Source: Rhizaria sp. SCN 62-66 (lineage: Eukaryota). Taken from it: DNA of 20,000 bases. Positions within the stretch are counted from its first letter, which is position 1. Every line of letters begins with the position of its first letter. The stretch covers positions 52,192 through 72,191 of the forward strand of contig MEDY01000117.1 in the NCBI GenBank assembly GCA_001724265.1, given 5' to 3'. Positions 188 to 20,000 of this stretch are shown piece by piece. The translations under genes and the position numbers were made by a program. The notes beneath the pieces are model-generated. The model saw nothing but the letters and a program-made list of their open reading frames with translations. It made no database searches and had not been told where the DNA came from.

Positions 188-864
188 ATGTCTTCTGGGG
201 CTGAGAACATCGATGTTCAAGAGAGCACCACAAGTGACTTGACAATCGACGACTCCGTTAAGGTACGTTCTCCCTTCATGCACTACACTAACCCCCGCTG
301 ATCACAAGGCTGCCTCTCACCGGTACACACATTTATGTAATACTGTAATCACTTGCCCTTGCGCAGCGCACGGTTCAAAAAATCCCTCTGTGTAGCATCC
401 GCGCGGGCCCGCTGGACGACGCGACCGAGTGGACAGCCCGCTTGCGGCAGGAGCTCATCGCTCTCATCGCGTACGTGCAGATGAACAAGGCCAACGACAA
501 CGACTGGTTCTTTATTGAGTCTAACCCTGACGGCACGAAGTGGTCCGGCAAGTGCTGGTTCGTGCACAAACACGTCAAGTACACGTTCAAGATGCAGTTC
601 GAGATTCCCGTGACGTACCCGGCGTCGCCGTTCGAGGTCGTGCTGCCCGAGCTGGAGGGCAAGACCGTCAAGATGTACCGCGGGGGAAAGATCTGCCTCT
701 CGCTGCACTTCAAGCCGCTGTGGGCGCGTAACGTGCCGCGCTTCGGCATCGCGCACACGCTCGCCATGGGGCTGGGGCCCTGGCTGGCCGCGGAGGTGCC
801 TTTCATGGTCGACAAGGGACTCATCACCGAGGAGGTCTTCGGTAGCGGCGGCAAGGGACAATAG
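188..864 (+). CDS. UFC1: Ufm1-conjugating enzyme 1 (E2-like); join(188..262,367..864), 190 aa if TAG is stop; extends to TGA at 883..885 (197 aa) if TAG is sense
   Basis: Exon 2 reads [64 protein letters not shown]...[52 protein letters not shown]. This matches UFC1 signatures ([14 protein letters not shown] with the catalytic Cys, [17 protein letters not shown]). Exon 2 has no upstream ATG in frame (TAA at 346..348). ATG 188 opens [25 protein letters not shown], which joins exon 2 in frame across the intron. Confidence 0.95.
263..366 (+). other. Spliceosomal GT-AG intron of UFC1 (104 nt, phase 0)
   Basis: AAG|GTACGT donor at 262/263. Pyrimidine-rich acttgcccttgcgCAG| acceptor ends at 366. 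Removal restores the frame (...DDSVK|RTVQKIP..., compare human UFC1 ...DEATRRVVSEIP). The interior has stops in both exon frames. Confidence 0.85.
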
Positions 865-998
865 CAACAGAACGACGCGGTTTGAGGTCACTTGGACTAT
901 TTGCCTTCGCAACTGACCTGGCAAGCAATGGCTTGGTGTGTCATCATCAGGCCACTCGAGACTACATAGTATTATTTGAATCTCATGAATCGCGGTAA

Positions 999-1004
999 AA
1001 TAAA
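999..1004 (+). promoter_or_regulatory. Candidate polyadenylation signal AATAAA for UFC1
   Basis: AATAAA in the AT-rich spacer about 115-135 nt downstream of the UFC1 stop. Confidence 0.35.
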
Positions 1005-1173
1005 AACAAATCATTGTATTGTACAAATTACACATAATTAAAGAGTTACATTTTTTAAATTCGGTTCAAAAACGACCCCTCACATTAGCAAGTTCTGACG
1101 CGATAGGCAGCAGTTGCCTCCGCGCATGCGCAAGATGAGTGAGTGACTGATGGAGTGAGTTTGCAGTCGCGAA

Positions 1174-4100
1174 TTAGAAGAGCGCGCGGCACATGGGGCA
1201 GGTGCTGTGCCCGGATGACTCGAACCACGTGAGCAGGCAGTTTGCGTGGAACGCGGCGGCACATGTGTGGCACGAGAGCGACGGTAGCGCCACCACGCGC
1301 GCCGCGGCGCCCGATGACGAGCCCGACACGTGGACGGTGCTGAAGCAGATGGGGCAGGCCTCGATGCCCTCGAGGCGATGGCGGACCACGCCGGCCCACA
1401 CCTGCAGCGCGCGCAGCAGCGGTGCGCCCTCGCCCGGGGCCGTGGCGCCGCGCATGAGCGTCTTGACCACGGCCAGTCGCGCGCGCAGCACGAACGACGC
1501 GCCCAGCGCGGCCGAGACCTCGCTGCCGCTGCTGCTGCCACGGTCGTCGCCGCCCGCATCGGAGCTCACGGCAGAGGCGGAGGCGTCGGCGGCGCCTACG
1601 GCCGCGGCGAGCATAGCGCGCCCGACGGCGTGCGTCATCGACACGGCCACGCCCGCGGCCGCGGCGAGCCCGCTGGCCTGAAACGGGAAGCCTGGCGTGG
1701 GGCGCAGCGTCAGACACAGCACCACGTCGCCGTCGTTGCCCGCCGCGCCCGCCGCGCTGCCGGTGAACTTGGTCAGCAGCGCCTCTGCCTCGGCCGACAG
1801 GCCCGTCCCGCCCTCGTCCGCCGCGGCGGCGGCGGCCGCGGCGGCGGCGGCCGCGGAGACGTGAGTCGGCGCGCGCAGCGCCATGGGCTTGGGGGTGAGC
1901 CCGAAAGCCTTGGCGGCCTTGCGGACCGCGGAGGCCGCGCCGCCGGTGGCGTAGACGGCGCGCAACATGGGCGCCGAGGGGATCGACGTCGGCGCGCCGG
2001 AGATGCTGTAGCTCGCGAAACCACTGTTGCTGCTACCGCTGCGATGAGACGGCGTGGCAGAGGACCACCAGGTCGCGGCGGGGCCAGAGCTGGCGGCAGC
2101 GGCGGCGGCGGCGGCAGCAAGCGCGGCGTTGGCTGCGGACACAGGCGGCAGCAACGGCGTTAGGCACTTGTACGACGCGTTGTTGTCGCCCGCGGCCGTC
2201 GCCGCGAGGAGCGCCGCGGCGACCTTGGCGCGCTCCACGACGGCGACGGTGGCGATGGCGGCGTCGTACAGTCCGTCCTGGCAGAAGACAGCGAACGCGG
2301 CGTCGGCGTCGGCCACGGCGGCCGCGGCGGCGGCGCGCGCAGCGATGCCCGCCGCCGCGCCCGCGCCCCCAAGGCGCCGCAGCGTCGGCTCCAGCAGCGT
2401 GGCGGCCGCGGCGTCGGGGGCAGCCCCGTGCAGCCCGAGCCGCGCCGTCGCGGCCGCGGCCTGCGCCTTGGCCGTCAGCACCAGGGGGGCAAACGCGCGC
2501 GCCATCAGCAGCGACGGCGAAGCCACCGCCACGTCGGCGTCGCTCGCACCCGCGCCCCCAGAGGCGCCAGCGCCGGCGTTGGACCTGCTGGCCAGCAGAC
2601 GCGGGTTCGCCGCGGCCAGCAAACGCAAATGTGCGACGGCGAAGGCCGAGGTCGCGTTGGCGGTGGCGCGTGCGGCGGCAGGATCGCTGAGCGCGAGCGC
2701 GAGCAGCACGCGCCACGCGACAGGACCGAAAAACTGCGTCTGGAAGACAAGTTCGGCCTCCTGCGCGCGCAGCTTGGCCAGGCGCGCGGCCGCGGCCGGG
2801 GACGGGGCGCCGCACGCCAGCGCGGTCGCGGCGGCGGCGGCCGCGGCGGCGGCCGCGGCGGGGCGGAGGCGGGCGCCGCGCGATGCAGAAGAGCCGGAGC
2901 CGGAGCCGGCGCTGCTGGCGTTGGCCGCGGCCGCGGAGGCGCGGGGCGGCAGCGCACCGTCCGCGAGCGCAACGACAGCGGGGGCCGCAGTCTCGGTCGA
3001 GTCATCGGTGTTTTTGACGCCGGTGGGCTCGGCGACGGCGACGGCCAGCGGCGCCCTTGCAAGGCCTGCAGCCTCCGGGGCGGCGGTACACGCCGTGTGT
3101 GAGTTGTAGAGGAGCGCGGTCATTGACGTGACGTCAAGCCTAATGCTGTCGTCGTCGCCCTCGCTGTCGTCGTCATCATCCGAGGACGACGGCGATGACG
3201 CAACGTTGGCGACGACCACGCCGCCCCGGCCGCCCTTGCGCTTGCTGGCGGTCTTGGCACGCGCCCTGCGCGCCTTGGCGGCTGCAGACCGGGAGCCCCG
3301 CGCCGCCATGGTCTCGGTCGCGGCGGTGATGGCGCCCGAGAGCGCGGTCCAGCGCGGGCCCAGCCCGGTGCCCACGGCGACGGAGCGCAGAAGCCGCGCC
3401 GCGACGGAGCCCGACGCGAGCAGCAGCGGCCAGTGCCAGCGCCACGCGCCCGCCTCCCACCCGGCTACGGAGGACTCGGTTGAGACGGACTGTGTGGCGG
3501 CGCGGTGCGCGGCGAGCGACTCGCGGTAGCTGATGGCGAAGTACCCCATCGAGGCGTCGGTGGGCGCGACGGCCCCCGCGTGCAGCGAGAGAAGCGTGAC
3601 GGCAGTGCGCGCGACGCCCACCGCGCCCGCCGTGTTGGCCGCGACGGCGGCGGCCACGGCGGCGGGCGAGGAGAGAGTGACGTCGCAGGGCGCGTTGGGC
3701 GCGGCCTGGGCCAGCGCGGCCACACTCGCGGCATGGCTGTGCTGACTCGCCACCTCATGGCTGCCGTGGGGGAGCTGCGGCGCGGCAGCGACAGTGAGCG
3801 CGGTAGGGACGGTACCGAGGAGCGAGTCAAGCAGCACGGCGCCCCACGGCGCGTCCTCGTCGTGGTCAATGCCGCTGTCATAGGAGTAGTCGTCAGTGTC
3901 ACGGCCATCGTTGTTGTTGAGACCGCTGCAGAGCGCTGCGACTGCGTCGTCATCACCAGCGTCGCAGTCGCCGTCCTTGCACTCGACGCTGTCGGTGGTG
4001 ATCGCGCCAGCAGTGTCAGCGGCGCAAGAGTAGTCGGGCAGCGCGTGCGCCGTCTTGCCCAGCGCGACGTCAATGCCGAGCATCATCACTACGCTCGCCG

Positions 4101-7100
4101 GCGCCGCGGCCTCGACCGCAGCCGCCGCGGCCGCCGCGACGCACCCGGCGTGGCCGCAGCGGCCGCAGCCCGCGCCCGCGCCCGCGCCGCCGGCGAGCCC
4201 TGAGCTCACGGCCGCGGCGACCGCGGAGGCGGCGGAGCGGACCGAGGCCGCCGCGGAGCCCAGGGCGGCGCGCGCAGAGCTCCACAGACCGGACTCAACC
4301 TTCTCAGCATCAGCGCCAGCATCCGCCTCAGCGTCGGCGTCGTCAGAGTCCGACCCGTCGACGACCTCAGCGGTCGCGGTCGCGGCAGCGGCCTCGGCGG
4401 CAGCGGCCTCGGCGGCAGTGGCCTCGGCGGCGAGCCCGGCCTCCGCAGCGGCCGCCACTACGACAGACTGCGCGGCGGCGACGAGCGCGGCGTGCGGGAA
4501 CGCGCACGCCAGCGCGCGGCGCGAGTAGCTCACGGTCACGTGTTCCGTGGCTTCCGCAAGGAGCCGGTGCAGCGGCGCGTCCGTCGGCAGGCGCAGCGGC
4601 AGCGCGGGCGCCAGCAGCCAGCGGCGCGCATCGCTCGCGGCCGCTGCTGTGGCCGTCGCGGCATCACCGGCGCTGAAAGCGCTCGTGGCGCTGGTCGCGG
4701 AGGCGAGCTCGATGACGGCGGCGCAGGCGAGGAGGTACGCGCGCGCTAGGCACCACGGCGGCAGCACCGCGGCCGGATAATACGGCGCGTCGGCCTCGTT
4801 GCCAGCGGTGCTGACGCTGGCGCTGGCGCCCGCGCTCGTGGCAGACGCCGCAGCAGAGGGAGTGGCAGCCTCGGGCGCGCTCAGAGGGGCGGCGTTCGCG
4901 GCGGCGTCGGCGGGCGAGAGCAGCGACGCGTACATAGGGTTGCTGATGAGGTCGTCGTCACCGCCATTGCCGTCAGCAGCGCTAGCAGCAGCGGTGGCAG
5001 CGGAGTTGGAGTCGCTCGCGAGCGTGAGCCCAGGCAGGGCCAGGCCCTCGCCACTGCCGTCCGCGTCGCCAGTCTTGCCAGCGGCGTCCTGACTGGCCTC
5101 CGCGGTGCCGACAGCCACGCCGGCCGCGACGCCCCAATAGTAGCTGGCGGCGACGCCGCCGCCGTAAGCGTTGCCGTCGCCGGCGCCGACCCCGGCCTCG
5201 GCCGCGGCGTCGGCCTCGGCCTGCGCGGCGGCGGCCGCGGCCGCGGACAGCGCCCCGCCGCGGCCGCCGCGCGCGGTGAGCGCAGCGCTAGCGGCCGCAG
5301 CGACCGCGGCGGAGGACGAGGTCGCGGTGCGCAGCTTGGCGGTCTCGCCGAGCGGGCCCGGGGCCGGGCGGTACAGAGCCAGACGGCGCAGCGCGTGCGG
5401 CAAGTACCGACCGGCGCGCTTGCTGGGGGCTGCACTCGCGCTCGCAGCGGAGGAGACTGCGGCGGCAGCAACGGTAGGCAGCACAAGGCGCAGTAGCGGC
5501 CACGCGACGCCCGCGGCCAGCGCGGCGGCGGGGTGAGCCAGCAGCGCGATGAGCGTGTCGACGGGGGTCGCAGTGGAGGCGGCGCTGCTGTTGCTGTTGC
5601 TGGGCGCTACAGCGGCCAGCACGGCGGCCGGCAGCGCAGTCGCGGTCTCACCAGTCGCGCTGCTGCTACTGCTGGACGTGAAGTGCGAGAGAAGAGTGCC
5701 GACCGCGACCGCGGCGCTCGTCAGCGGCGCGGCCACAGAGTTTCCTCCAGAGGCAGTGACCGTGAGCCCGGTGACCGTGAGCGCGGTGACCGTGAGCGCG
5801 GCCGTAGCCTGGCTGAACGGACTGGGGATGGCGACAGGGCATTGCCACAGCAGCAGCGCGGCTGCGTCGCCCTCGCTCTCCGACACGGCCGCACTCACCG
5901 CGTTCGCTGCGTCGCTGGACGCAGAGGAGCCAATGACGGCGGCGGCGGCGGCGGCGGTAGGCGTGTGGGAGGGCGAGGCGGCGGGGGACGTGGCATAGAG
6001 CGAGCGCAGCACACGGTGCAACGGGGCATGCGCGCAGGCGCCGACCGTGGAGAGCAGCGGCGCGCGCGACAAGGCCGCTGCGGAGCCACTCTGGACCAGC
6101 GCCTTCGCCACGCTCTGCCCAGTCGCGCCCTCACCGGACGCGGACGCGAGAGACTGGATGGAGGCGGGCAGCGTGGTGAAGGCGGCGAGCGCGAGCAGCA
6201 GCGCGCGGGCCGCGGCGTCGTTGCGCGCGCGCGTGCACAGCGCAGCCGCGGCGGGCGCGGCGGCGAGCGCAGCGGCCACAGCAGCGGTGCCCGTGGGCAG
6301 CAGACTCGCGCCGAACGCGGAGCCCGCAGCGACGGCCAGGGCGCTGGGCGCGGTGTAGCTGTGAGCAGCGAAGCCGGTGAAGGACGACCCGGCGGCGGAG
6401 ACGGAGAGCAGCGAGCCCGCAGGCACCAGGATGCCCTCGCCTGCAGCAGCATCGATCGCGTCAGCGTCGTTGTTGGCAGCGACAGAGACGGATGAGGCAG
6501 TACGGTGCAGCTCGGCGGCGCTAGTGAAGATGACAGTCACGACGGCGGCAAGCGCGGCGGCGACTGACGCGGACGGCGCAGCCGTAGCGCGGGCGGCGGA
6601 GGCGGAGAGCGTCTGCAGCAAACGCAGTAACGCGTGTGCGACAGCGATGCGCGCGTCTAAGGGGTTCTTAGACAACGCGCTCGGCAGACACTTAGACTCG
6701 CCCGCGATGGCGGCGGCGACGCGTGCGAGTGCCGCAGCGGCAGCGCGGGAAGGAAGCTTCGCCGCAGCCGCAGTCGCAGCGGCCACAGATACGATGGCAA
6801 CGTTAGTAGAAGCTGCAGCGGTCACGGCAGTAACGGTAGCGACCACGCTGTCCACGTCGATGTTGCCACTGTTTGCTGCCACGACGCCCGCCTTCACAGC
6901 GGCGACATAGGCCTCGCGCGCGCTGGCCGCGAGCTCGGCGCTCGACACGCGACTCGACTTCGATAGCGCCTCCGCAGCGGCTGACTGCGCAGCGTCGCGC
7001 GCGCGGGACATGGCGGCGACCGCGCAGTCCTCCGCAGCCGCCACGGCTGCCACAGCGCTGTTACTGTTGCCGCTGCTGTTCAGGAAGCGGCTCGCGACCG

Positions 7101-10100
7101 CGGCGGCGTTGGCGACTGCGGTGAGTGGCGCGACCCGGCGGCGGCCTCCGCAGGCGCGCGCGTTGGGCAGCAGCTCGCCCGCGTCGTCAAACTGGTCCGA
7201 ACCGTAGTATTCGTTGCCGCCATCGGGCAGCCACCATCCGTCGCCGTCGGCGGCCTCAGTCAAAGTCTCGGTGCTCGCGTCCGCGTCGGCGTCAGAATCA
7301 GCGCCTGCATTGGCGAGAGCAGCGGTGAGGCCCTTAGTGACAACGGCGCGGCCATCGACACGGCGGTACTTAGCGGGCAAGTACGTTTGCAAGTCCTCCA
7401 GCAGCAGCGTCTCTGCGGCAACAACCGCGGCCGGCGGCGCACTCGCAGTGTTGTTTGCACCAAAGCCAGAGCCAGAGCCAGAGCCAGAGCCGGAGACGGA
7501 GCCGGAGACGGGGGGACGCAGCGCGGCGGCGGCCGAGGCGGCGGCAAAGGGGCGCGCAGCGACGGCGAGGATGACGGCGACGGGCGCAAACGCGGCCCCA
7601 AGCGGGTTACTCTCACTGCAGACAGCGCTAGAGCTCGAGCTGCAACTGATTACGGCGGTGTTGTTTGCGAGAACACCGACGCCCTGGAGCAGCGCGAGCA
7701 GCGGGGCGAATGCGGGGAGACGCGCAGGGGGGATGACGCCGTTCGAAACAGACGCCACGGTGACGGACTTGAGTCCCTCACTCGCGCCCGCAGTTGCAGT
7801 GTCGCAGCGAGCGTAGCTATGGAAGAGGAGCGGGGTATCCGTAGTGACGGCCGCGGTTTCATGATCCCGCACCGCGTTGTTGAACGCCGTCGCGCCCGCC
7901 ATCGCCCACAGCGCGTTCGCGGCCAGCGCGACCGTGGCCGCAGCGGAGCAGGGCATCCAGCCCGCCGCACCGGCGGCGCCCGTGGCCGCCGCGGCCGCCG
8001 TGGCAAAGGCCGCGAGCGAGGGCGCCGACGCGGCCGCGGTAAGCGGAGGCAGCGGCAGCGGGTGAGCTGGCGCCCCGGCCGCGGCGCGCTCGGAGGCCGC
8101 CGCGGTGGGCAGCGCGGCGCCGGCCAGCGCAGCGGCGGCGAGGCCCGAGTTTAGGGGGTTCGCGGGGGACAGCAGCGACAGCGCGGCGGCGAGCACGGGC
8201 GCGGGCGCCGCGGCCGAGGCGGCGGCGGCCGCGGTGGACGCGGCGGCAGCGGCGGCGGCCACGGCGGCGGGAGACGCGGCGTGCTCGCCGGCGGTCAGTA
8301 TGCGCGCCACGACGGAGCCCAGCGCTGCAGTCGCACCGCTGCTGCTGGTGCTGCTAACAATGGCTGCAGTGCTGCGAGAATCGACAACGGGCGAAAGTGC
8401 GGGCAGCAGCGGCACGGCCTGGCTGCCGCTGTCGGCGGTCACTGCGACAGTCGTGGCGGCCGTGAGGGCGGCGGCGGGCTCAGTGGCCGCGGTCGTGACG
8501 TTGATGACGGCCTCCATCGCGATCAGGTCAGCCAGCACCATCGCAGGCGCAACGGCGTAACTCACTGCACTGGCGCCGAAGCTAGAGTTGGCGTTGGAGG
8601 CAGCGGCAGCGGCCAGGACACGCGGGAGACCGAGGCCGAGCAGCACGGCGCGCCATACAGGGCCGTGGAGCGCGCGGAGGCGTGCGGCGCACTCGAGCGC
8701 GCACGCGGGCGACACGGGTACAACAGCCCCGTCGGCAGGCACGGTCGAGAGTGGCGACGCCAGGGAGGACGACGCCGCCGCAGTTCCATCGATGTTGGTG
8801 TTGCTCGAGAGTGCGGTGAGCAGAGCGCGGGGAATCGCGCCCTGCGCGCCGGCCAGCAAAGCCAGCACGTACGCGCGCGGCGGCAGCAGTGCGGCCAGCA
8901 CAGTCGCCCACGCCGGGGCAGCCTCGCCGCCACACACGGCCGTATCGCGCACCTTGGTGTCGGCGCCGGTGTGCGTGAATGACTCGCAGTGCGCGCGCTC
9001 GCCGTCGCCGGCCAGGCCGACCCCCGCCTCGCCACTATGGCCCGCCGAAGCGGCGGCAGCGGCGGCAAGGAGCGCGGCGGCGCGTGCGACCCAGGCCTCG
9101 CCCCACATCTTTTGCGGCAGCAGCGCGGGCGCGGCGGCACCGAGTCCGGCCTCAGCCTCCACGTCGCCGCCCTCGGTCCCCACAGCGCTGGAGCCAGAAC
9201 TAGCGGAGGCGAGGGTGGCGAGGGTGGTAAGCAGCACGCGGTCGCGGCGCGGCATGTCGCGGAGGTGTGGCACCAGGGCCCACACCGCTGCAGATGCGCT
9301 CACGGTCGAGGACGCGAAGGCGCCGGAGCCCGCGCCCACGGTCACTGCACTCGCGCTCGCGCTCGTCGTGGCAGCGGCGGCGATGGGGAGCAGAGGCAGC
9401 GCGGGGTGGCAATGCAGCTCGGCGCGGGTGAGGTGCGCCGCAAGCGGGCGCGCGGCAGCAGCGAGCGCGGCGGCCGGCAGCGCGCCAGTGGGGGCAGCGG
9501 CGGCCGCGGCGGCGACGGCGGCGGCGGCCGCGGCGCGCAGGGCGGGGTCGGGAGCCGTCCACTGCGTCGTGATGAGGGACGCGAGCAGCGCATTGGCCGC
9601 GGTCACGGCAGCAATGTTGTCGCTGCTCTTGTGCGCGCCATTGAGGGCCGCGGCGGCGATGATGGGCGTGAGCGCGGTGATGATGGCGGGCAGCGCGGCA
9701 GGGTGCACGCCCGTCACGGCGGCGGCGCGCGCGGCGGCGGACCTGCCGAACGACGTCGTCGACACGTTGTAATAGTAGCCATCGTCGTCGTCGTCGTCAT
9801 CCTCGCTGTCGTCGCCGTCCTCGTCTTCGTCCTCGTCCTCGTCCTCGTTGCCGTCGACGTCGCGGCTACGAGAGCGCGTGAGAGCAAAGCCGCCGCCCGC
9901 AACGCGCTGCAGCCGCGCGGCGACGCGGGCGGACGCGGCGGGAAACAGCCCGTGGCAGCGCAGGGCGCCGGTTAGCGCCTCGGCAGCGGCAGCGACGGCC
10001 TGGTTCGCGGCGGCGGCGCCCGCAATGGGCTCACTGCTAGACGCCGCAGAGGCAGAGGCAGCGGCAGCGGCGGAGCCGGGAGTCAGCAGCAGACGCAGCG

Positions 10101-13100
10101 TGGCCGTGAACAGGCCGCCGGACGCTGCATTCGCAGTGGATCTAGAGCTAGAGCTGGAGCTTGGGGCGAGCGTGGTCGCGGAGGTGGCAGCGGCAGAGGC
10201 GGCGGCGGGGGTGGCACGCAACAGCGTGGACATGAGAGACAGCGTCAGCTCAGCGGTCTGCGGACCGCGTGCCAGTGCTGCAAACGGAGACATCGCGTTG
10301 CTAGCGCAAGCGCCCTCGGTGGTGATGTAAGTACCTTGGGCGCGTGTGTAAGTGCGCTTGCAGATGAACCCGGCAAGCGCCGCGTGAGCCAGCAGCAGCC
10401 AGCGCGCGGCGCGGGCGCGGGGGCGCGCGGCCACGCCTGCGCGCGCCCGCGGCAGCAGCACGTAGCCCGTGGGCAGCGCCGCAGAGGACGCCGCGGCCTC
10501 ACTTTGCTGGATGGCCTGACTTTCGGGGCGGTAGAGGCGCGGCAGCATGAGCAGGCCGGACGGGTCCTGGCTCTCGGCCAGGGTCTCCGCGGCCGCCAGC
10601 GCGGCCACGAGCGCGGCGCTCTCGCCGTCGCCGGCGCTGGCGCTGGCGTCGTCGTCGTAGCAGTCGGCGGCGGCGGAGGCGTCGGGGTCCGTGTCCGGCA
10701 GAGTGGAGATGAGCAGGTCGACGACCTCGGTCGCGGCGGACTCGGCAGTGAGGCCACCGGCCGCAACGCCGGTCGCCGTCGCAGCAGAAGCACCAGTTGA
10801 GCCACTGCTATTGCTGTTGCTGTCGAGCGCAGAGACGGAGGCGGCGACCGTGGCCATGACTGAGTAGAGCCCGGCGCACGCCCACAAGCACACGGTGTCG
10901 CTGCCGGCGTCGCTCGCGTCCAGACGCTCGGCGAGGAAGTTAAGCCGCTCGTCCACGAAGTTAGGCCGTGTCGCATCATCAGCAGCAGCCGCGGCGGGAT
11001 CGGCATGGAAGCAGACGCGCGGGCGGGCAACGAGGGGCGCAAACGACGCTGCAGCTGCCGGCAACAGCTCGATCGTGCAACCCGAATTCGCGGTCGGATT
11101 GGGGCCGTTGTAGAGCGTGGGAGGGATCACGGTGCATGCGCGCGTGGCAGCGGACGCGGCGGCGGCGGCGCGGGCCGCACGCAGCGCCGCCGCCGCAGGG
11201 CCACGGGCGCCAGCATCCACGGCGCCAGAGCCGCGTCCGCTGCCCGCGCCGTTGTTCTGGCAGAGGGCGGCAGGCAGCGCGGCGGCGGCGGCTGCGGGCG
11301 ACGGGGCGTAGGCGCGGACTGCGGCAACGAGCGCAGGGAAAGCCGGGTCGAGCAGGGGCAGCGCGGCGAGGCTGTTGCGGGTCGCCACGGGCACCAGCGG
11401 CTCGCGGTCACCGCCAGCGGCGGCGAAGCTGCCCTCGGGATGCGAGTTGCTGTAGGACGTCATGTCGACGGGGTCGAGCAGCGAGAGCAGGAGCACGTGC
11501 AGGTCCGCGAAGGTCTTGTTCGCGGTCGCCGCCGGGTAAAACGACAGACGCAGCGGCTGAGAAGACGGCGCGAAAGCGGTGTGTGCATTCAGAGTGACCG
11601 TGAGCAGGCCGAGCAGGTGCATGTTGTTGACGCAGTCGGCGGCAAAGGACGCCAGCGAGGCGGCCGCAACGGGGGCCAGGATGTGGGTGCGCACGGTCTC
11701 GGCCACCAACGCGCTCACCGCCGAAATCGTAGTCGCACTCATAGCCTCGGTCGCAGAAGCAGAGGCAGAGGCAGAGGGAGTGGCAGTGGGGTTGGGCACA
11801 GTGAGGGCGACGATAAGGGCAGCGGCAGAGGCGGAGTCCTCAGCAGCAGTCATCTTCGCGTTGCAGTTGCTGTTCTGAGCATTGGTGATCGTGAGCAGCT
11901 GCGCCCACCAGTCGCCGGGCAGCGTCGGCATCGTCGAGTCGGCCTCAAGCTCACAGCTCTCCCAGTCAAAGCCACCGTCGCAGACTGCAGAGGCGGCTGC
12001 CGCAGCTGCACCCGGGCGCTCAAACGAGAGCGCGCCGGTGACGGGGTCGACGCTCCATAGTAGCGAGGCGGGGGCTGCGCGCGCCAGTGAGAGCAGCGTG
12101 CGCGCAGTCAGCGTCGAGAACCACTCACCGACGGAAGGCTCCGAGAAAAACGTCTCTGTGATAGACAGCAGCGCGCTCGCAGCCGCAGTGGCGAGCGAGT
12201 CGGTCTGCACAGCGCCAGTGCCAGGGCTGCTGGTGAAAGCAGCGGGGCCCAGGGTGGTCGCCAGAGTGTAGATCGCAGGCAGCACGAGGTCCGCGGCGAG
12301 TGAAAGCGAGACGGCACGGGCCTTGGCGTTCGCCGACGTAGTCGCAATTGCACCGCTAGAGCTGGAGCAGTCACCAGAAGCGTTTGTGGTCGTGGCGCGC
12401 CACAGAGCGGCCACGGTCTCGGCGGAAAGCGCGAACAGAGCGCGCGCGGCGGCGGACACCGAGGGCGCGAGCGGCGTCGCAGCCACAGTATTCGCCGCAG
12501 CAGAGGACGAGGACGCAAAAGCAGAGGCCGAGGCAGAAGTCGGGGCCGGGGGGTCGCAGCGGGAGAAAAGCTCCGTCGGAGTAACCAACCACGCAGCAGT
12601 CACGTTAATAGCCGTGGCGGCGAGGGCAGACTCTGAGGCCACACTAGGCGCAGCCGTGCCTAGAGCGGCCGCAGCCACCTCGCCGTCGTCGGCGTCGGTG
12701 CCAGGCACGGCGTACCCCAGCGCCGCGGCGACCGTCGGTGACGCCGAGAGCGCGGCCAGCGCGGGGGGCTGCGCCATCGCGCCCGCAGCCACGGCGGCCG
12801 CCGCGGCGTTGCTGTGTTGAGCAGCCGCCGTGGCCGCAGTGTGGCTTGAGTGCGAATGCGGGTGCGCGTGCAAGTGTGTTTGTGAGGCCGGGAGGATGGT
12901 GGTTGCGATCCCGGTCCACAGGGAGCGCAGCACGGTGATCACCGACTCGGGGGCGTCGGTCGGCCACTGGACGCGCCACCCGCTCTTCTCCTCCACCACA
13001 CTCCCACTCGCACTCCCAGCGGTGGCAGCAGCCTCACTGGGGCCGTTCTCGGTACTTCTGTCGCTTTGAGTAACCGTGAGCGCGGTGACCGTGCGCAGCA

Positions 13101-15696
13101 GCGCGGCGGCGCGCGCGGGCACCGCGGCGTCCCCCGCGGCTGCCTGTCGGGCCAGCGAGGCGGCGAAAAGCGGCAGCAGCCGGTTGGCCAGCCCCGCCGC
13201 CGTGACCGTCAGCACCAGCGGCTGCTGCGAGACCGCGGCAGTAGCCGCCGAGACAGAGACAGCGGAGGCGGGAGGGATCGCGGCCCCGGCGGCGACGGCG
13301 GCCAGCTCAGGCCGCACCTTCAGCACTGTGAGGGCCAGATCCCATGCACTCTTGACGTTGCCGCGGGCCGTTTCGCGCGCCAGGACCGAGAAAATGCCCT
13401 TGGCGACGGTGGGCAGCGTGGCATGTGCCGTGACAAGGCGCGGCGCTGACTGGACGAGGACGGTAAGCAGCTCGACGGTGGCGCGGCGCAGGTCAGCCGC
13501 GGCGTGCGTGGTAAGCGGCAGCAGCGCGTCGAGCGCGGGCGCCGCGGCCGCGGGCGGCAGGTAGAACGGCGACGACGCGAGCAGACTAGAAGGATTACTC
13601 CCTGCACGGGACGACAGCGCGGCGGCGGCGGCGGCAGGCGCGGAGGCCGTTGCGACGAGCCAGGGGTCAAAGGCGCATGCCGCCACCGTCGCGGGCTCCC
13701 TGGCCGCAGCGGCAACGTCACCGGACAGCAGCGTGTGCATGACGCCACCACTATGGGGCGAGGCGGGGGAAGAGCCGGCCTTCCTGAGCGCGAGAAGCGC
13801 GCCGGCGGCCGCGGTCCAGCCGCTGTGGCAGATGGCGAGCTCGCGGCACCAGGCCGCCGTGCCAGCCAGCACTGACGCTGTGACGCGCGCCCAGCGGTCG
13901 CCCTCGACGGCCGCGGCGGCCGAGTCGGCGGCGGCCATAGTAGAGTGGCGGGGGACGCCGGCGAGCGCGGCGAGCTGCGCGGGGGAGCAGTGCAGGTAGA
14001 GGCGCGTTGCGGCCAGCCAGGTCGGCAGCGTGAAAGCGAGGAGCTGCTGGTGCGACCACCAGGGGCGGGCAACGCAGCAGTCGCCGCCGCTCGCGCCATC
14101 ACGCGCAGCCGCGGCCTCGGTCTCCGTCTCGGTCTCCGTCTCCGGGCTGCGGGGGGACTGGCGTGGGACGGGCACGGGGACTGCGGCCGCGAGCGTGGTC
14201 AGCAGAGCAGTCTCGACCGCGCGGGCGGCCTTTGCGGCGGTGCTCTTCTTCTTGGAGCTCGAGCGGTCGCCGTCCGCAGCGACTGCAGCAGGAGCAGCAG
14301 CAGCAACGACCGGGGCGGCGGTGGCTGCGTCGGCAACGGCGTCGGTGGCCGCACGGGTGCCCGCAAGCACCGCGGTCCACAGCGTCGCGCAGTCCTCCTC
14401 GCTCATGGCCACTTGGCCGCCGCTCGTAGTCGCGGCCGCCGCGCTACTGTGGGCGCGGGCGAGCACAGCGGCGGGCGCAGACGCATGGGCCGGCACGGAG
14501 GGGAAGGCTGCGTTGAGGCACTCGAGCGCGGTCTTGGCGACGCGGGGCGCGCGGTCATGGCACAGCAGCCACGTGTGCGCAAACAGGTCCTCGATACCGC
14601 CGCTGGAACCGGCACCGCTGTGTCCTGCGCCGGCAGCGCCGCCAAAGCCAGAGCCATGAGTGTGACCGTGAGCGTGGCTGTGGGCGTCTGAGTGGGGGCT
14701 GTGGCGGCGGAGGAGAGCAGCGCGGACTGGCGGCAGCGCGCGCGCGAGCGTCATGAGGGGCGCAAAGAGGCGCGTGCAGACGAGCTCGCGGACGTGGGGG
14801 TCCGCGTCGAGGCAGAGGCGCGAGTGCAGCTGGCACAGCGCGGGCAACGACTCCAAGAGCGCCTCCAGCGACAGCGGCGCGCTCGAGACGGCAGCGTCGC
14901 CGCCACTCACGCTCGTACTCGCAGACGCGGACGCTGTCGCTGTGGGGGCTGTGACGCCGGGGCCAGCGCTAGGCGCGGCGAAGGCGGGCGCAAGCGCGGC
15001 GACGGTCGCGGCGAGAATGGCGCGCAGCCCGTCGAGGCTCTTGACGCGCGTCACTGAGTCGCGCTTGGAGAACTTGCGAATTGCCAGCGACAGGTGCGAG
15101 TCGGGCGAGTCGAGCGCGGCCAGCTCCGAAACCAGGAATGCCGTGCCCGTGCTCGTGGGGTACAGTGGCATCGGGAAGCTGCGATTTGGCGCAGCAGCGG
15201 AAGAAGCAGAGACGGAGGCGGAGGCGGAGGCGTCAATGGCTGCATCGGAGCTCTTGTCCTTGCTAGCCTTCTTGTCGTCCTTCTGCTTGTCGTCCTTGGG
15301 CTCCTTGGAAGACTTCTTGGCGGGCGTGTCGGCGCTGACGGAGATAGAAGAAGCGGGGGCGTCCTTCTTGTCCTTCTTATCCTTCTTGTTGTCTTTGTCC
15401 TTCACAGCATCAGAGTCTGCAGACGCATCGGCCTTTTTGTCCTTCTTGTCCTTCTTCTCCTTCTTGCCATTCGCGGCAGTGCCGGCGTCGACGATGGTAG
15501 AGGTCGTATCGTCAGCGTCGCCCATGCCACTAGACATCATAAACGAATCGAGGGAGAAACCACCGGCAAAAGCACCGCCGCTGCTCCCGCCGAAGTTGCT
15601 GCTGCCGAAGCCATCAAAGCCGCCGAAGTCACTGCCGACGTTCTAGTCGGCTGCGGAAGTCTTGGAAGCCTTGCCCGACTTGGAAGGTTTAGACAT
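1174..15696 (-). CDS. LTN1: Listerin / LTN1 (Rkr1) ribosome-quality-control E3 ubiquitin ligase, greatly expanded (4840 aa counting the in-frame TAG at 15643..15645 as sense; 4788 aa from ATG 15540)
   Basis: C-terminus LLRALQVWAGVVRHRLEGIEACPICFSTVH...LPSLSCHTCAAAFHANCLLTWFESSGHSTCPMCRALF* matches the LTN1 RING (human ...[23 protein letters not shown]...[38 protein letters not shown]). N-terminal domain motifs DSHLSLAIRKFSKRDSVTRVKSL, LCLDADPHVRE and WLLCHD...ALECLNAAFP match LTN1 ([41 protein letters not shown]...AFEAAFP). In-frame ATG 15696 gives MSKPSKSGKA...GFDGFG, similar to human RPSNSGRA...GFIGFG. Confidence 0.9.
1177..1356 (-). other. C-terminal LTN1-type RING (C4HC3) domain
   Basis: CPIC-x-CHTC-x-H-x2-C-x3-W-x-CPMC, with a Ser/Gly/Ala insertion in the first loop. 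Confidence 0.9.
5756..5800. repeat. Coding tandem repeat, 3 x 15 nt (gtgaccgtgagcScg), encoding ALTVT-ALTVT-GLTVT in LTN1
   Basis: Units at 5756-5770, 5771-5785 and 5786-5800 differ at one base. Confidence 0.8.
7466..7491. repeat. Coding hexamer microsatellite (CCAGAG)n encoding a (GS)n linker in LTN1
   Basis: gccagagccagagccagagccagagc seen directly. Confidence 0.75.
9781..9860 (-). repeat. Low-complexity acidic tract (DVDGNEDEDEDEDEDGDDSEDDDDDDDG) within LTN1
   Basis: (tcg/tcc)n trinucleotide-like run on the + strand. Confidence 0.8.
15250..15470 (-). repeat. Lys/Asp-rich low-complexity insertion (KKEKKDKKDKK...KKDKKDKKD) in the LTN1 N-terminus
   Basis: Repeated ttcttgtcc units on +; translation shows KKD repeats. 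Confidence 0.75.
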
Positions 15697-16350
15697 CGAA
15701 GTCAATCAGAGACTAAATGTGCTGGAAAAGGGGTGATATGGGCGTCTCGAGAAGAGACTCTGCGATGATGGACAACAGGGTGCGGAGCAAGATCCAAGGA
15801 GTGAGATAAGGCATTTAGAACGCATCTATCGATGAGGTAATTAAACAAACAAATGCAATCTCTTGTTGAAAATATGTGGATCGTTTCATGTCTGTACTAT
15901 CGGACTTTTATGCCTGATTTCAGCACAAGTTTTTTTCGCGCACATCGCCAGATTCGTTTGTGGTGGTTGGCCAGATGCGTATGCACAGCGTACCTACGCA
16001 AATGGACACAATAACCGAGTCGATCTTACCTACAATCACAATCACTCGAAATGATGTTCTGGTGCCACGTATAATCAAAATAATTCCATGATATGGCGAG
16101 CTGTATTATCAAAGGGTGATCGTTCAGGAATGATATAATACTCGTATTCTCCAAAGTTGCACCTGAACGTGACGTGTAACCTGGCGGACACAGGCGGCGT
16201 AGCCGATGATATCTTGTCATAAACGCGACAGACCAAGCATGGCCAAAATTTACAAACCAAATATGTTCAAAATCAAATCCGTAATAATCGTCTGAAGATC
16301 AATTTACACGATACTGACCACCACGGTCATTGCGCTAATCGCAGCATGAA

Positions 16351-18885
16351 TTAGTGCAGCTTGAAGTACGAGGACATCGTACTCCCCTGTTTACTACAAA
16401 CACCCATGCTACAAAACTTCTCAAAGCAGTACCTAACGGTGTTGGTGAACGGTTTATACGAATGCACCTGTGGCGCCTCCGTTGACATCGAGTCCTGTAC
16501 GATGCGGCCGACTGGCACAGCGCCGCGCAGCAGACTGGCCGGGCACGGCTTGAAGACGAGGAATACCGGTGATCGGTTTGCTGGGGGCAGAGGAACGACA
16601 TTACGAGGACACATGAGCAGCGTACCAGGCGGGTAAACAACGGTGTCATCAGGCCGCATGTACTCGCCGTAAGCAACATCGGTGTAATCCCCCAGCGTCA
16701 GCGGCGCAGTGGCGCACGGCGCTGTTCCGCTGTACAGTGTGACGTAAGGCAGCGTCGCCGCTGTGTGGCCGGGTGGCACAAAACACTGGTGTAAGTGCCA
16801 GCCCAGAGCGTTGTTCTTGGATGCCAACAAGAAGTGAACTTGATAACTTGGAAACCGATTCAAGTCGTAAAACAGCAAAAAATGGTGCGTGTCGTGGCGC
16901 AGAGTCAACGGATTGAAAAGCACTGAAGTGGTCATCTTTGGATTGCCGCATGACTCGTAAATCAAGCGTTTATGCGCAAGAATACTTACGCGTGCCTTAG
17001 CCTGCAACAGCTGCAGCGCTGCCGCTGACGGAACAGTCGCTGATTGAGCTTCAGTCAAAGCTTGCGCCGCGCCTGCGTTAGGACTGCGTTGTGAGCCTGC
17101 CTCGCTCGTGTTGCGAGTGGTTCCGTCGTTGCCATTGCTGTGCAAGACTGGGGCAGGGTAACCACATTGTTTCTCCAGGGTCCGACTAATATGCGCCTCG
17201 AACGCCCTCAACCAGTTTCCGTCGTAGCTCTCTGTGAAGGCACGTTCGTCCTTGAAAGCTTGTTGTACTTCAGAGTCTACTGTTGTTTTTGTTGCTGACA
17301 TAAAACACGCCGCCTCTGGCATATTTTCAAGCTGTTTGCTTAACAGCGTAAACTCCTTTAGTGCATGTCCGTCTTGCTGCATAACTGCCGAGTAGCGCAG
17401 GATATCAAGAGCCTGAGGTCCACGCGCATCAACAAATGTTGTTACAACGTCAGTGTCAATCGGGGCATTTGCTTGGTTGGTGCAAGTTCCTGCCGGTGTG
17501 CTTGCTTCAGTGCTGATTGCAGCGCCAGCGATTTGACGATCTTTTTCAATACTTTTGGTTCTAGAAACATTGGCATCAAGCATCACGCGTAGCACGCGCA
17601 GCAGCCTCGCAGCACTGGTATCATCAGCCTTCGTCAAATCAGTGCAAAGAGCGATGGCAAAGAGTGTGGAGACGCAGCATTGAACAACTCCAGTTTCGAG
17701 CATCAGTAGCACCGTAGAAGCGGTTGTGATGCCTGAGGAGTTAGCAGAGAGAATCGCGTCACACAAATGTACACCAAAAGTAGAAAGGTTGTTAACCCCC
17801 CATTTGTTCTCCTTTGGAATGAGTGCCCGTAAAAGCTGTTGAAACCCATTGTGAGAGACAAGTTGTGCCGCATACGAAGGGATCGCTTGCGTCAAGCGGA
17901 TCACAATTCGGACTGAGTGCTCGAGCACCAGCGTGTCCCAAGAGCTAACGACCATCACACGCCCGGTTACAGCATCCAAGTGCGGTTGTGTAAAGACCTT
18001 AGCAAGTGTGGTATCATCAACAGCAGAGGTGATCATCTGTAGCAACTCCAATACGTGAACCTTGAACACCGGTGTCGCACGCGACGAGTTGTACCACTCA
18101 TAGTCGGACAGCAATTGCGAGAACTCCTAACTCAGAATGAACTCATGGGAAATGCTTTGAACGTATTGACTAGCATCAAAATCGGCAGCACATGTACGTA
18201 GCACATTAATCAGCATTGTGTACGCACTGCCACGCACCACCGAGTTGCTGAATTGCCTGATGTGCCCCAGGACGACATAAAAGTGGGGCACGCATGTGGC
18301 GACAGACGCAAAAGGCACAGGCACACCTTTAGAGCACACCTGTGACACAACACCAAAAACGCTGCACATAATATGGAAGAAAGAAGGATTGGGATGTGCT
18401 GATTGTTCGGCTTTGGAGCAAAAATACTGCATAAAGGACATTAGATACTCCAGTGCTGCTGTCTTCACTGCGAGAGGAACAAGCGAGGATTGTGAAATAA
18501 TGTGCATCAGGGTTATCATTCGCGTGTCAACGTTATCGCCAGTTATGACACCATGCCAAAGCTGCCTGCTGAGGACAGAAAGCATGGTGCTTGGCGCAAA
18601 CACGTCGCATCCCTTTACGTCCATGTCGTGGTTACTGTTGCCTGCACAGACGTGTTGGACAATCTTGACAAGAGTATCTTGCCTATCACGCTCTTCATGG
18701 TCAGTACATAGCTGAAACGTGGATGTGAACAGCTCAGCAATGTTGCTCTCGCATAATATTGCGTTCCGTACAAGAGGGTCATTGTTGCGACTACGGACGC
18801 TGATAGCGGCTTGCAGTTCATGCAAGCCGGTAGTACTCGATGAGAGTGAAAGTGTCGAGGCAATGGCATCGTAGAGGCGTTCCAT
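16351..18885 (-). CDS. Uncharacterised protein of about 844 aa: ARM/importin-alpha-like helical N-terminal half plus degenerate cyclophilin-like C-terminal domain; one in-frame TAG at 18127..18129
   Basis: ORFs 18127..19050 and 16351..18114 share a frame and are separated only by TAG followed by GAG TTC TCG CAA. First in-frame ATG is at 18885 (MERLYDAI); upstream TGA at 19057..19059; terminal TAA at 16351..16353. Amphipathic helical repeats (SVRSRNNDPLVRNAILCESNIAELF; QLVSHNGFQQLLRAL; LMLETGVVQCCVSTL) resemble ARM repeats on both sides of the TAG. Confidence 0.6.
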
Positions 18886-19324
18886 GCTAAAATTCAGCGT
18901 TGTAACAGGAACTCCAGCCAATTGGTTCGAAAGAACAGTGCTTGGTGGGACTGAAAAGTCGAGCTGCCGTCTTTGCGAAAAAGGGGCAACACTGACCGTG
19001 GGAAAAATGACAGGATATAACCCTTGTGAGAGGTTCCACGAAATGCGCAAATGATATCACAATGCAATGGTTACTTTAAATGCATATACATCTTCAAAAT
19101 GAACTTCGACTGTGATTCTATGGCTACGCTATCGTCTTTCAATTGTGACCACGAGCTGGTTGGACCAATACATTTCTGACCACAAATGAAGCACAGACAG
19201 AATTATCGGAGATTTCTCAGTGAAATCATCGCATCTCATAACAAGTGCGATGCATCACATATAAATGTATCGATTCAATGACATTTTAACATAATATTCT
19301 GAAAAGTCGTTCATCAAAAGCTTG

Positions 19325-19330
19325 TTTATT
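19325..19330 (-). promoter_or_regulatory. Candidate polyadenylation signal AATAAA for the ABCA gene
   Basis: tttatt on + (AATAAA on -) about 157 nt downstream of the ABCA TAA. Confidence 0.3.
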
Positions 19331-19486
19331 CCAACCGCCATGAAGTGTCGGGGAAGTTAGGGTAGAGGGCACAATAACTTATGAGTATTTGCGTATCACA
19401 AAGCAAGCATATCTCAAATTCTATATAAAAATACGATCGATCAAAATAAAAGCATACAGTTCAACGACTGCGTTGTCAAGACGCAC

Positions 19487-19999
19487 TTAAGCGCGCTCAA
19501 CCAGATCACGCTGCTCCTGCGCACGCACCATCTGGATGAAGATCTGTTCCAGATCAGTGTCCGACACGGAGTACGAGTCGAGCCCGACGCGCGCCTTGTT
19601 GCTCTCAAACGCGCGGAACACCGCCGACGTCGGCCCCGCCACAGCCTTGTCAATGCGCACCTTGAACGTCTGGCCGTGGCTCTCGATCACGGTGGTGTTA
19701 GGATAAGTAGCCTTGATCCAGTCGAGCGCAGAGTCCTCAGCGCCCGCACGCGTCTTGCCGACGACCTGGTAGCCCGAGCCAAAGCGCTGCTTGAGGTGGG
19801 GCGCCGTGCCGAGGCAGCGGAGCCGGCCGCCGGTCATAATGCCGATGCGGTCGCAGAGCGCCTCGCACTCCTCCATCGAGTGCGTGGTCAGGATAACGGA
19901 ACGGTTGGCCATCGTGGACGAAATGAGCTTCCACATCGAGCGACGCGCCTGCGGGTCCATGCCCGTCGACGGCTCATCCAGGAACACGATCAGCGGGTT
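19487..19999 (-). CDS. ABC transporter subfamily A (ABCA), C-terminal part of NBD2 plus regulatory domain; 5' part outside the window
   Basis: [23 protein letters not shown] (Walker B/D-loop), [23 protein letters not shown] (ABCA-type H-loop), [31 protein letters not shown]; ends at TAA 19487..19489. Confidence 0.93.
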
Positions 20000-20000
20000 G

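Follow-up and report, generated by a model that had tools for sequence, protein, structure and literature searches.

UAG appears to be translated in at least one of four neighbouring genes, and probably in three of the four, in a stretch of 20,000 nucleotides from Rhizaria sp. SCN 62-66 (assembly GCA_001724265.1, contig MEDY01000117.1, forward-strand positions 52,192 to 72,191), the whole of which is referred to here as the window. The three genes encode an ARM/HEAT-like helical-repeat protein (ARM), UFC1 and an LTN1 (listerin)-like protein, and each of them has a single TAG codon within a frame that goes on beyond it, at 18127-18129 (minus strand), 862-864 (plus strand) and 15643-15645 (minus strand), respectively. 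These codons are real and in frame, as had been noticed from the letters alone, and on their basis the original prediction held that UAG is a sense codon while UAA and UGA remain stops. The evidence that could be tested supports translation, whereas a change in the code of the whole genome is unproven; a full UAG-only reassignment, where UAG stands for an amino acid and UAA and UGA for termination, is regarded here as reasonably probable. Continuation of the coding sequence past the TAG was upheld strongly for the ARM-like gene only, the support for UFC1 and LTN1 being indirect.

Homology across the TAG codon of the ARM-like gene

The strongest of the three sites is that of the ARM-like gene (16351-18885, minus strand; 844 codons, with a TAA at 16351-16353), where homology argues strongly for translation of the TAG. 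This codon, number 253, lies inside a conserved block and separates two open frames of 309 and 591 codons which share the same reading frame, the 591-codon one having 51% GC. A search of 5.8 billion proteins returned seven, of which one is the downstream part of the window gene itself and six are homologues with 27-38% identity, three of them covering 84-94% of the query. Alignment with these homologues puts the TAG in a single ungapped column (EFILS-X-EFSQLL against DFAGS-D-EFEFLI, DFVLS-D-DFEHLL, AFVTS-N-DLDSLI and EFLGS-P-EFELLL), the residue being D, D, N and P in four of the six homologues and the other two being gapped in the region. Moreover, single BLASTP alignments span the TAG (residues 67-838, E 6e-61; residues 123-831, E 5e-66), and the 252 amino acids on its 5' side, searched alone, gave collinear matches to the N-termini of the same homologues (E 3e-7 and 7e-4). 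Judged by this collinearity, the predicted open reading frames (ORFs) on either side of the TAG are one gene, two separate genes being excluded. An intron is excluded as well, because the query carries no insertion at the TAG with respect to the homologues.

In the structure model of the protein, which has a mean predicted local distance difference test (pLDDT) of 53 and values of about 71-73 around the TAG, residues 1-646 are all-helical, and residue 253 would be the first position of a helix (253-261) within a continuous helical solenoid, this being a low-confidence model. No match to the ARM-like protein was found in Pfam or in the PDB. The "cyclophilin-like" label that had been attached to its C-terminal domain was therefore not confirmed by Pfam or PDB matches, the model of this part having a pLDDT below 50, and the Atlas search with the C-terminal part was uninformative, with a score below 0.8.

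The ARM-like family is very rare, and its C-terminal domain is strongly conserved, with the invariant block VFKPC...LRGAVPVG. The database lists the downstream part of the window's gene as a separate protein of 587 residues; in fact, standard gene callers split or truncate the genes of this organism, the ARM-like gene being an example. At 16404-16437, just inside the 3' end of the gene, opposite strands are joined in one contig of run X7, which may reflect a hairpin or a library artefact.

The UFC1 gene and its closest relative

The UFC1 gene (188-885, plus strand) consists of exon 1 (188-262), a 104-nt intron of the GT...AG type (263-366, GTACGT...GCGCAG) and exon 2 (367-885, if the TAG is read through to the TGA at 883-885). 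The Pfam UFC1 domain matches residues 6-159 of the 171-residue frame (E 3.3e-77) and ends 12 residues on the 5' side of the TAG. The sequence around this codon is CAA TAG CAA CAG with a TGA soon after, just as first described, and the codons between the TAG and the TGA encode Q-Q-N-D-A-V.

Moderate support for translation of the UFC1 TAG comes from comparison with the closest relative found (L002), which keeps the convergent arrangement of UFC1 and listerin and whose UFC1 is 73% identical to that of the window. When read through, the window protein ends in N-D-A-V followed by TGA, and that of L002 in T-D-A-V followed by TGA. The codons for the shared D-A-V, GAC GCG GTT in the window and GAT GCT GTC in L002, differ in third positions only, all of these differences being synonymous. 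Over the gene, 86 of the 190 aligned codons differ in the third position, a degree of divergence at which similarity of untranslated sequence between the two organisms would be unexpected. The comparison places the ancestral UFC1 end at D-A-V, which fits continued translation past the TAG. The UFC1 gene of L002 (204-783) is a single exon, the intron found in the window being absent there.

Among 14 UFC1 loci recovered from metagenomes, eight (L005-L008 and L011-L014) contain in-frame TAA and/or TAG codons at conserved positions, and at least six of these eight terminate in TGA. This is what would be expected of organisms, probably ciliates, in which UAR is read as sense, and the eight loci were used as an informal positive control.

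The listerin-like gene

The LTN1-like gene (1174-15696, minus strand) comprises 4840 codons and ends with a TAA at 1174-1176. Taking the ATG at 15696-15694 as codon 1, its TAG is indeed codon 18 and is followed by a 4822-codon open frame that runs down to the TAA at 1176-1174; support for its translation is weak to moderate. The frame has no stop besides this TAG and the final TAA, the other two frames containing 60 and 101 stops. By homology, the predicted C-terminus is unambiguously that of listerin, the final 83 residues being aligned with chain residues 1692-1765 (of 1766) of human listerin at E 7.3e-13, and with yeast listerin at E 2.6e-10, up to the end of the query; the Pfam RING matches are below the gathering score. 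The protein is about 2.7 times as long as human listerin (4840 vs 1766 residues), with 28% alanine throughout and a GC content at third codon positions of 0.83, and recognisable listerin is limited to its last 85 or so residues.

The N-terminal 420 residues gave no matches in 1.84 billion representatives and none in the PDB or Pfam. In the Atlas feature search, the listerin N-terminal cluster ranked first for this region (0.92), sharing 135 of 256 features, a number below the 170 usual for true members, so that the match is a lead only.

Further support comes from the position of the start codons. An in-frame TGA at 15708 is followed first by the ATG at 15696, and the 100 nt upstream contain no other ATG. 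A second ATG comes at 15614 in a different frame, and the listerin frame does not meet a further one until 15540 and 15537. According to the scanning rule the first AUG should be used; given the order of the ATGs, the standard code would therefore require ribosomes to bypass two upstream AUGs, those at 15696 and 15614. Furthermore, the LTN1 TAG lies within record 21 of X6, a polyA-RNA library contig (15543-15695) that is collinear with the window and free of differences and gaps, which argues against splicing or editing there. PolyA-RNA libraries can contain DNA, and this may be so for X6. The X6 pieces that come clearly from the window organism are all in genes (4/4), and by estimate the same would be expected about one-third of the time for DNA. 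A difference in run X7 (A>C at 15666) alters codon 11 of the listerin leader.

At the other end of the gene, the listerin of L002, 73% identical over the last 81 residues, stops at the homologous residue with TAG, and that of the window with TAA. A TAA in the window in place of the TAG of L002 is the replacement expected after a reassignment.

Stop codon usage and agreement between assemblies

The frames of LTN1 and ARM each contain one TAG, one TAA (terminal) and no TGA, and that of UFC1 one TAG and one TGA (terminal). In-frame counts bore out the earlier statements that all of the genes are free of internal TAA and TGA codons and of frameshifts and that LTN1, ARM and ABCA, the transporter gene at the edge of the window, terminate in TAA. 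In fact, there are zero internal TAA or TGA codons across 4840, 844, 197 and 170 codons, the terminators being TAA three times and TGA once. None of the four genes is terminated by TAG, UFC1 being read through and counted as TGA; by a rough estimate, four genes under the standard code would give such a result about one time in four. The very low use of UAG that had been pointed out was also found, amounting to 3 per approximately 7,800 codons with ABCA included, 1,742 of these codons being known solely via a predicted protein, P0011.

The TAGs are not an error of one assembly, as they recur in contigs obtained elsewhere. A DNA contig of another study (X2, record 3) spans 15437-19606 and keeps both minus-strand TAGs, with one difference at 17130, and another (X4, record 15), also of a different study, spans 15530-19344 and keeps both with zero differences. 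As regards the UFC1 site, the metagenome contig L001, which was assembled separately, shares 2337 bases with the window and matches at every one of them, TAG included. The T>A difference at 17130 in X2 alters the first base of ARM codon 586 (AAC).

Proposed mechanism and alternative explanations

The proposed source of the window would be the nuclear genome of an uncultured eukaryote from wastewater and bioreactor communities, in which UAG would specify an amino acid and termination would be left to UAA and UGA. By analogy with other UAG-only codes, as far as PMC5304391 outlines them, a tRNA with anticodon CUA, one anticodon change away from a normal tRNA, would read UAG and not UAA, and recognition of UAG by eRF1 would be weakened. 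UAA or UGA would have taken over at former UAG stops, and new sense UAGs would only now be starting to arise. Such a change would be young, because UAG is very rare and the nearest sampled relative still stops at it; in other words, the listerin stop of L002 leaves two options, a young change or an ambiguous UAG. A more specific proposal can be put forward only tentatively, namely that the window has captured an early stage of a stop-to-sense change in which sense UAG reaches about 0.4 per 1000 codons, UAG stops have already been purged in favour of UAA, and a syntenic sister (73% identical in UFC1 and in the listerin C-terminus) is still stopping at UAG; we hold this to be possible, with rather more doubt than confidence.

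Several observations weigh against a changed code. There are three sites only, one of which (ARM) has a clear homologous column. As the LTN1 N-terminus is without a homologue, the 17 codons on the 5' side of its TAG could be an upstream ORF. Other UFC1 genes end 1-23 residues past the point matching the Pfam domain end, so that an ordinary stop at the UFC1 TAG is possible, and the picture described above would be no different if a dispensable UFC1 tail had very recently acquired a nonsense codon. The occurrence of TAG alone, never of TAA or TGA, is weak evidence, because about 60% of the single-base paths to a stop in these genes give TAG; under random nonsense mutation of these GC-rich genes, the chance that all three would be TAG is about 0.17-0.22. 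The 1912 codons of ABCA, as known from P0011, contain zero TAG. If the listerin TAG of L002 were read through, 142 codons would be added, running into the UFC1 gene, so that L002 uses TAG as a stop. Finally, the RNA contigs leave 18006-18172 uncovered and are thus silent either way on the ARM TAG, and DNA may be present in the RNA run. The plausibility of the UFC1 TAG as a gene end, the listerin leader peptide without a homologue, the status of TAG as the commonest nonsense outcome and its use as a stop in L002 would all suit a standard code accompanied by three coincidences, i.e. a fixed or common nonsense allele of ARM, a UFC1 tail clipped by seven residues, and a 17-codon upstream ORF in frame with a listerin that starts at the ATG at 15540 or 15537. 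Nevertheless, two independent nonsense changes in four adjacent genes would be needed, one of them removing 70% of a conserved ARM protein, although no frameshift and no TAA or TGA is found anywhere in the frames and the 591-codon frame past the ARM TAG is intact. Moreover, the ARM allele is identical in X2 and X4, which come from other studies, and the runs with this stretch date from 2015 to 2025; translation of listerin, in turn, would begin only after two AUGs had been skipped, one of which is in another frame. Such coincidences are considered quite improbable, and much less likely than translation of UAG.

UAG could also be ambiguous, being mostly a terminator and translated at particular sites through context-dependent termination or programmed readthrough. 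This would agree with the TAG stop of the close relative L002 and with the extreme rarity of sense UAG here, and ambiguous stop/sense codes have been described in eukaryotes, for example in some ciliates and trypanosomatids. The leaky tobamovirus-type context has the motif UAG-CAR-YYA, and UFC1, reading CAA UAG CAA, resembles it; however, the codons after UAG are CAA CAG in UFC1, GAG UUC in ARM and AAC GUC in LTN1, and CAR-YYA occurs in none of them. The contexts in ARM (AGU UAG GAG) and LTN1 (GAC UAG AAC) are also unlike that of UFC1. Readthrough is partial and normally yields C-terminal extensions, not whole proteins, and if inefficient at listerin codon 18 or at ARM codon 253 of 844 it would waste most of the product. 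With TAG terminating none of the four genes, an ambiguous UAG is judged unlikely. Even further from what was found is the idea that the TAGs never reach the ribosome, either because they stem from errors of assembly or sequencing or because small introns or RNA editing eliminate them. The gap in RNA coverage would leave some chance for splicing or editing at the ARM site, but both minus-strand TAGs recur in independent DNA contigs and the UFC1 TAG in L001, the ARM alignment has no room for an intron, and the polyA-RNA library contig crosses the LTN1 TAG unspliced and unedited. The GT...AG pairs found by eye near the TAGs are 16-71 nt apart, and only a 36-nt pair keeps the frame, whereas the real UFC1 intron measures 104 nt; introns at the TAGs were thus rejected both on alignment and on length, and the probability left to artefact or removal is very small. 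Decoding of the pyrrolysine or selenocysteine type was dropped, as neither is known for UAG in eukaryotes.

Candidate amino acids and tRNA

Under a UAG-only reassignment, the identity of the amino acid would have to be read from the one informative column, that of ARM, for which the profile emissions are D 0.20, N 0.12, E 0.11, K 0.07, S 0.06, Q 0.06, L 0.03, Y 0.01 and W 0.003. As far as this alignment profile goes, Leu, Tyr and Trp would be mildly disfavoured, Glu, Lys, Ser and Gln not being separated from one another. The original assignment of UAG as "likely Gln" is thus neither supported nor refuted, and the Q-rich surroundings of the UFC1 TAG (Q-TAG-Q-Q) fit Gln but prove nothing. Rfam finds no tRNA in the window, and an eRF1 gene is not present there either. 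ARAGORN reports an 88-nt tRNA-Glu(CTC) at 10590-10677 on the plus strand, antisense within the GC-rich listerin gene, which is probably a false positive given that Rfam finds no tRNA there.

Comparison with known codes

UAA and UAG almost always change meaning together. The nuclear lineages with a UAG-only change that are described in PMC5304391 and PMC11687900 amount to a handful, i.e. one rhizarian, one fornicate and three events in phyllopharyngean ciliates. In the rhizarian exLh (Sainouroidea), as reported in PMC5304391, nuclear UAG encodes Leu, with UAA and UGA as stops. As is proposed for the organism of the window, exLh has, in that account, UAG alone changed and is a non-ciliate protist known from sequence data only; unlike the window, with its 3 UAGs in about 7,800 codons, it has 384 in-frame UAGs in 71 genes (PMC5304391), and the ARM column of the window mildly disfavours Leu. 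In Iotanema spirale (Fornicata), nuclear UAG encodes Gln and UAA is kept as a stop, according to the same source (PMC5304391). This is again a UAG-only change with UAA as a stop, and Gln is compatible with the window sites; Iotanema spirale, however, is described as an anaerobic metamonad. As for the phyllopharyngean ciliates, PMC11687900 describes UAG as Leu in one lineage and as Gln twice, with UAA as the fixed preferred stop, some of the cases coming from metagenome-derived genomes. The likeness to the window lies in the reassignment of UAG alone, which is probable here, and in the preference for UAA (three of the four terminators). The window is unlike the ciliates in that its genes have 51-73% GC and its intron is 104 nt long, and its UFC1 is 57-66% identical to the eight metagenome loci bearing TAA or TAG codons.

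Ambiguous stop/sense codes are represented by Condylostoma, Parduczia and Blastocrithidia nonstop. In these, as described, an internal stop codon is translated and may still terminate, a behaviour which could reconcile translation in the window with the TAG stop of L002; in contrast to the window, UAA and/or UGA are involved too and the recoded codons are frequent.

Outside supplementary files, the literature yielded no account of a UAG change in any wastewater eukaryote other than a ciliate. If the reassignment were true, it would represent a further independent non-ciliate UAG-only case, to be added to a very small set, and the very low use of UAG, together with a relative that has a UAG stop, could reveal an early stage of reassignment. 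In this context, the sister pair would permit a direct comparison of the codon-capture and ambiguous-intermediate routes. The organism is open to follow-up, given that public runs contain the stretch.

Gene neighbourhood and occurrence

The spacers between the four genes of the window measure 288, 654 and 601 nt and are AT-richer (40-43% GC) than the genes, among which the LTN1-like one has 73% GC and its neighbours 51-64%. The region 15300-19200 is near-complete in four public runs (2015-2025, three studies), which are either labelled as bioreactor or wastewater metagenomes or unlabelled, and parts of it are present in further wastewater-type runs. Among the runs with this locus, X2 includes contigs of up to 71 kb and X4 of up to 193 kb, and in the protein database the locus is recorded on a contig of 106 kb. 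A metagenome scan with UFC1 found the window organism on one contig only, namely L001 (2556 nt), and the scans of genome contigs and of viral contigs found nothing.

The fourth gene, the 3' end of an ABCA-type transporter, lies at 19487-20000 on the minus strand, with a TAA at 19487-19489 and a Pfam R1_ABCA1 match. Its full-length version is P0011 (1912 amino acids), one uninterrupted predicted protein that is 100% identical over the window part. In a quick tree of 43 rows chosen from 120 listed matches, the window and the ABCA of a relative (P0012) are placed in a fully supported clade of 12 rows, outside of which stand the named rhizarian, plant, animal and other sequences; a placement within Rhizaria, to which named ABCA matches had pointed, is therefore not supported. 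P0012 is 78% identical to P0011 over 624 residues and begins abruptly at the position of P0011 residue 1304, despite contigs of up to 40 kb; its gene is interrupted upstream by a stop, an intron or a frameshift. The upstream fragment of this relative's ABCA was sought as a possible fourth site, and the search returned only the query's own protein. A cluster of variants in the ABCA end (19778-19901), made up of five transitions in the RNA run X6 and partly common to X2, suggests a second strain about 3% divergent.

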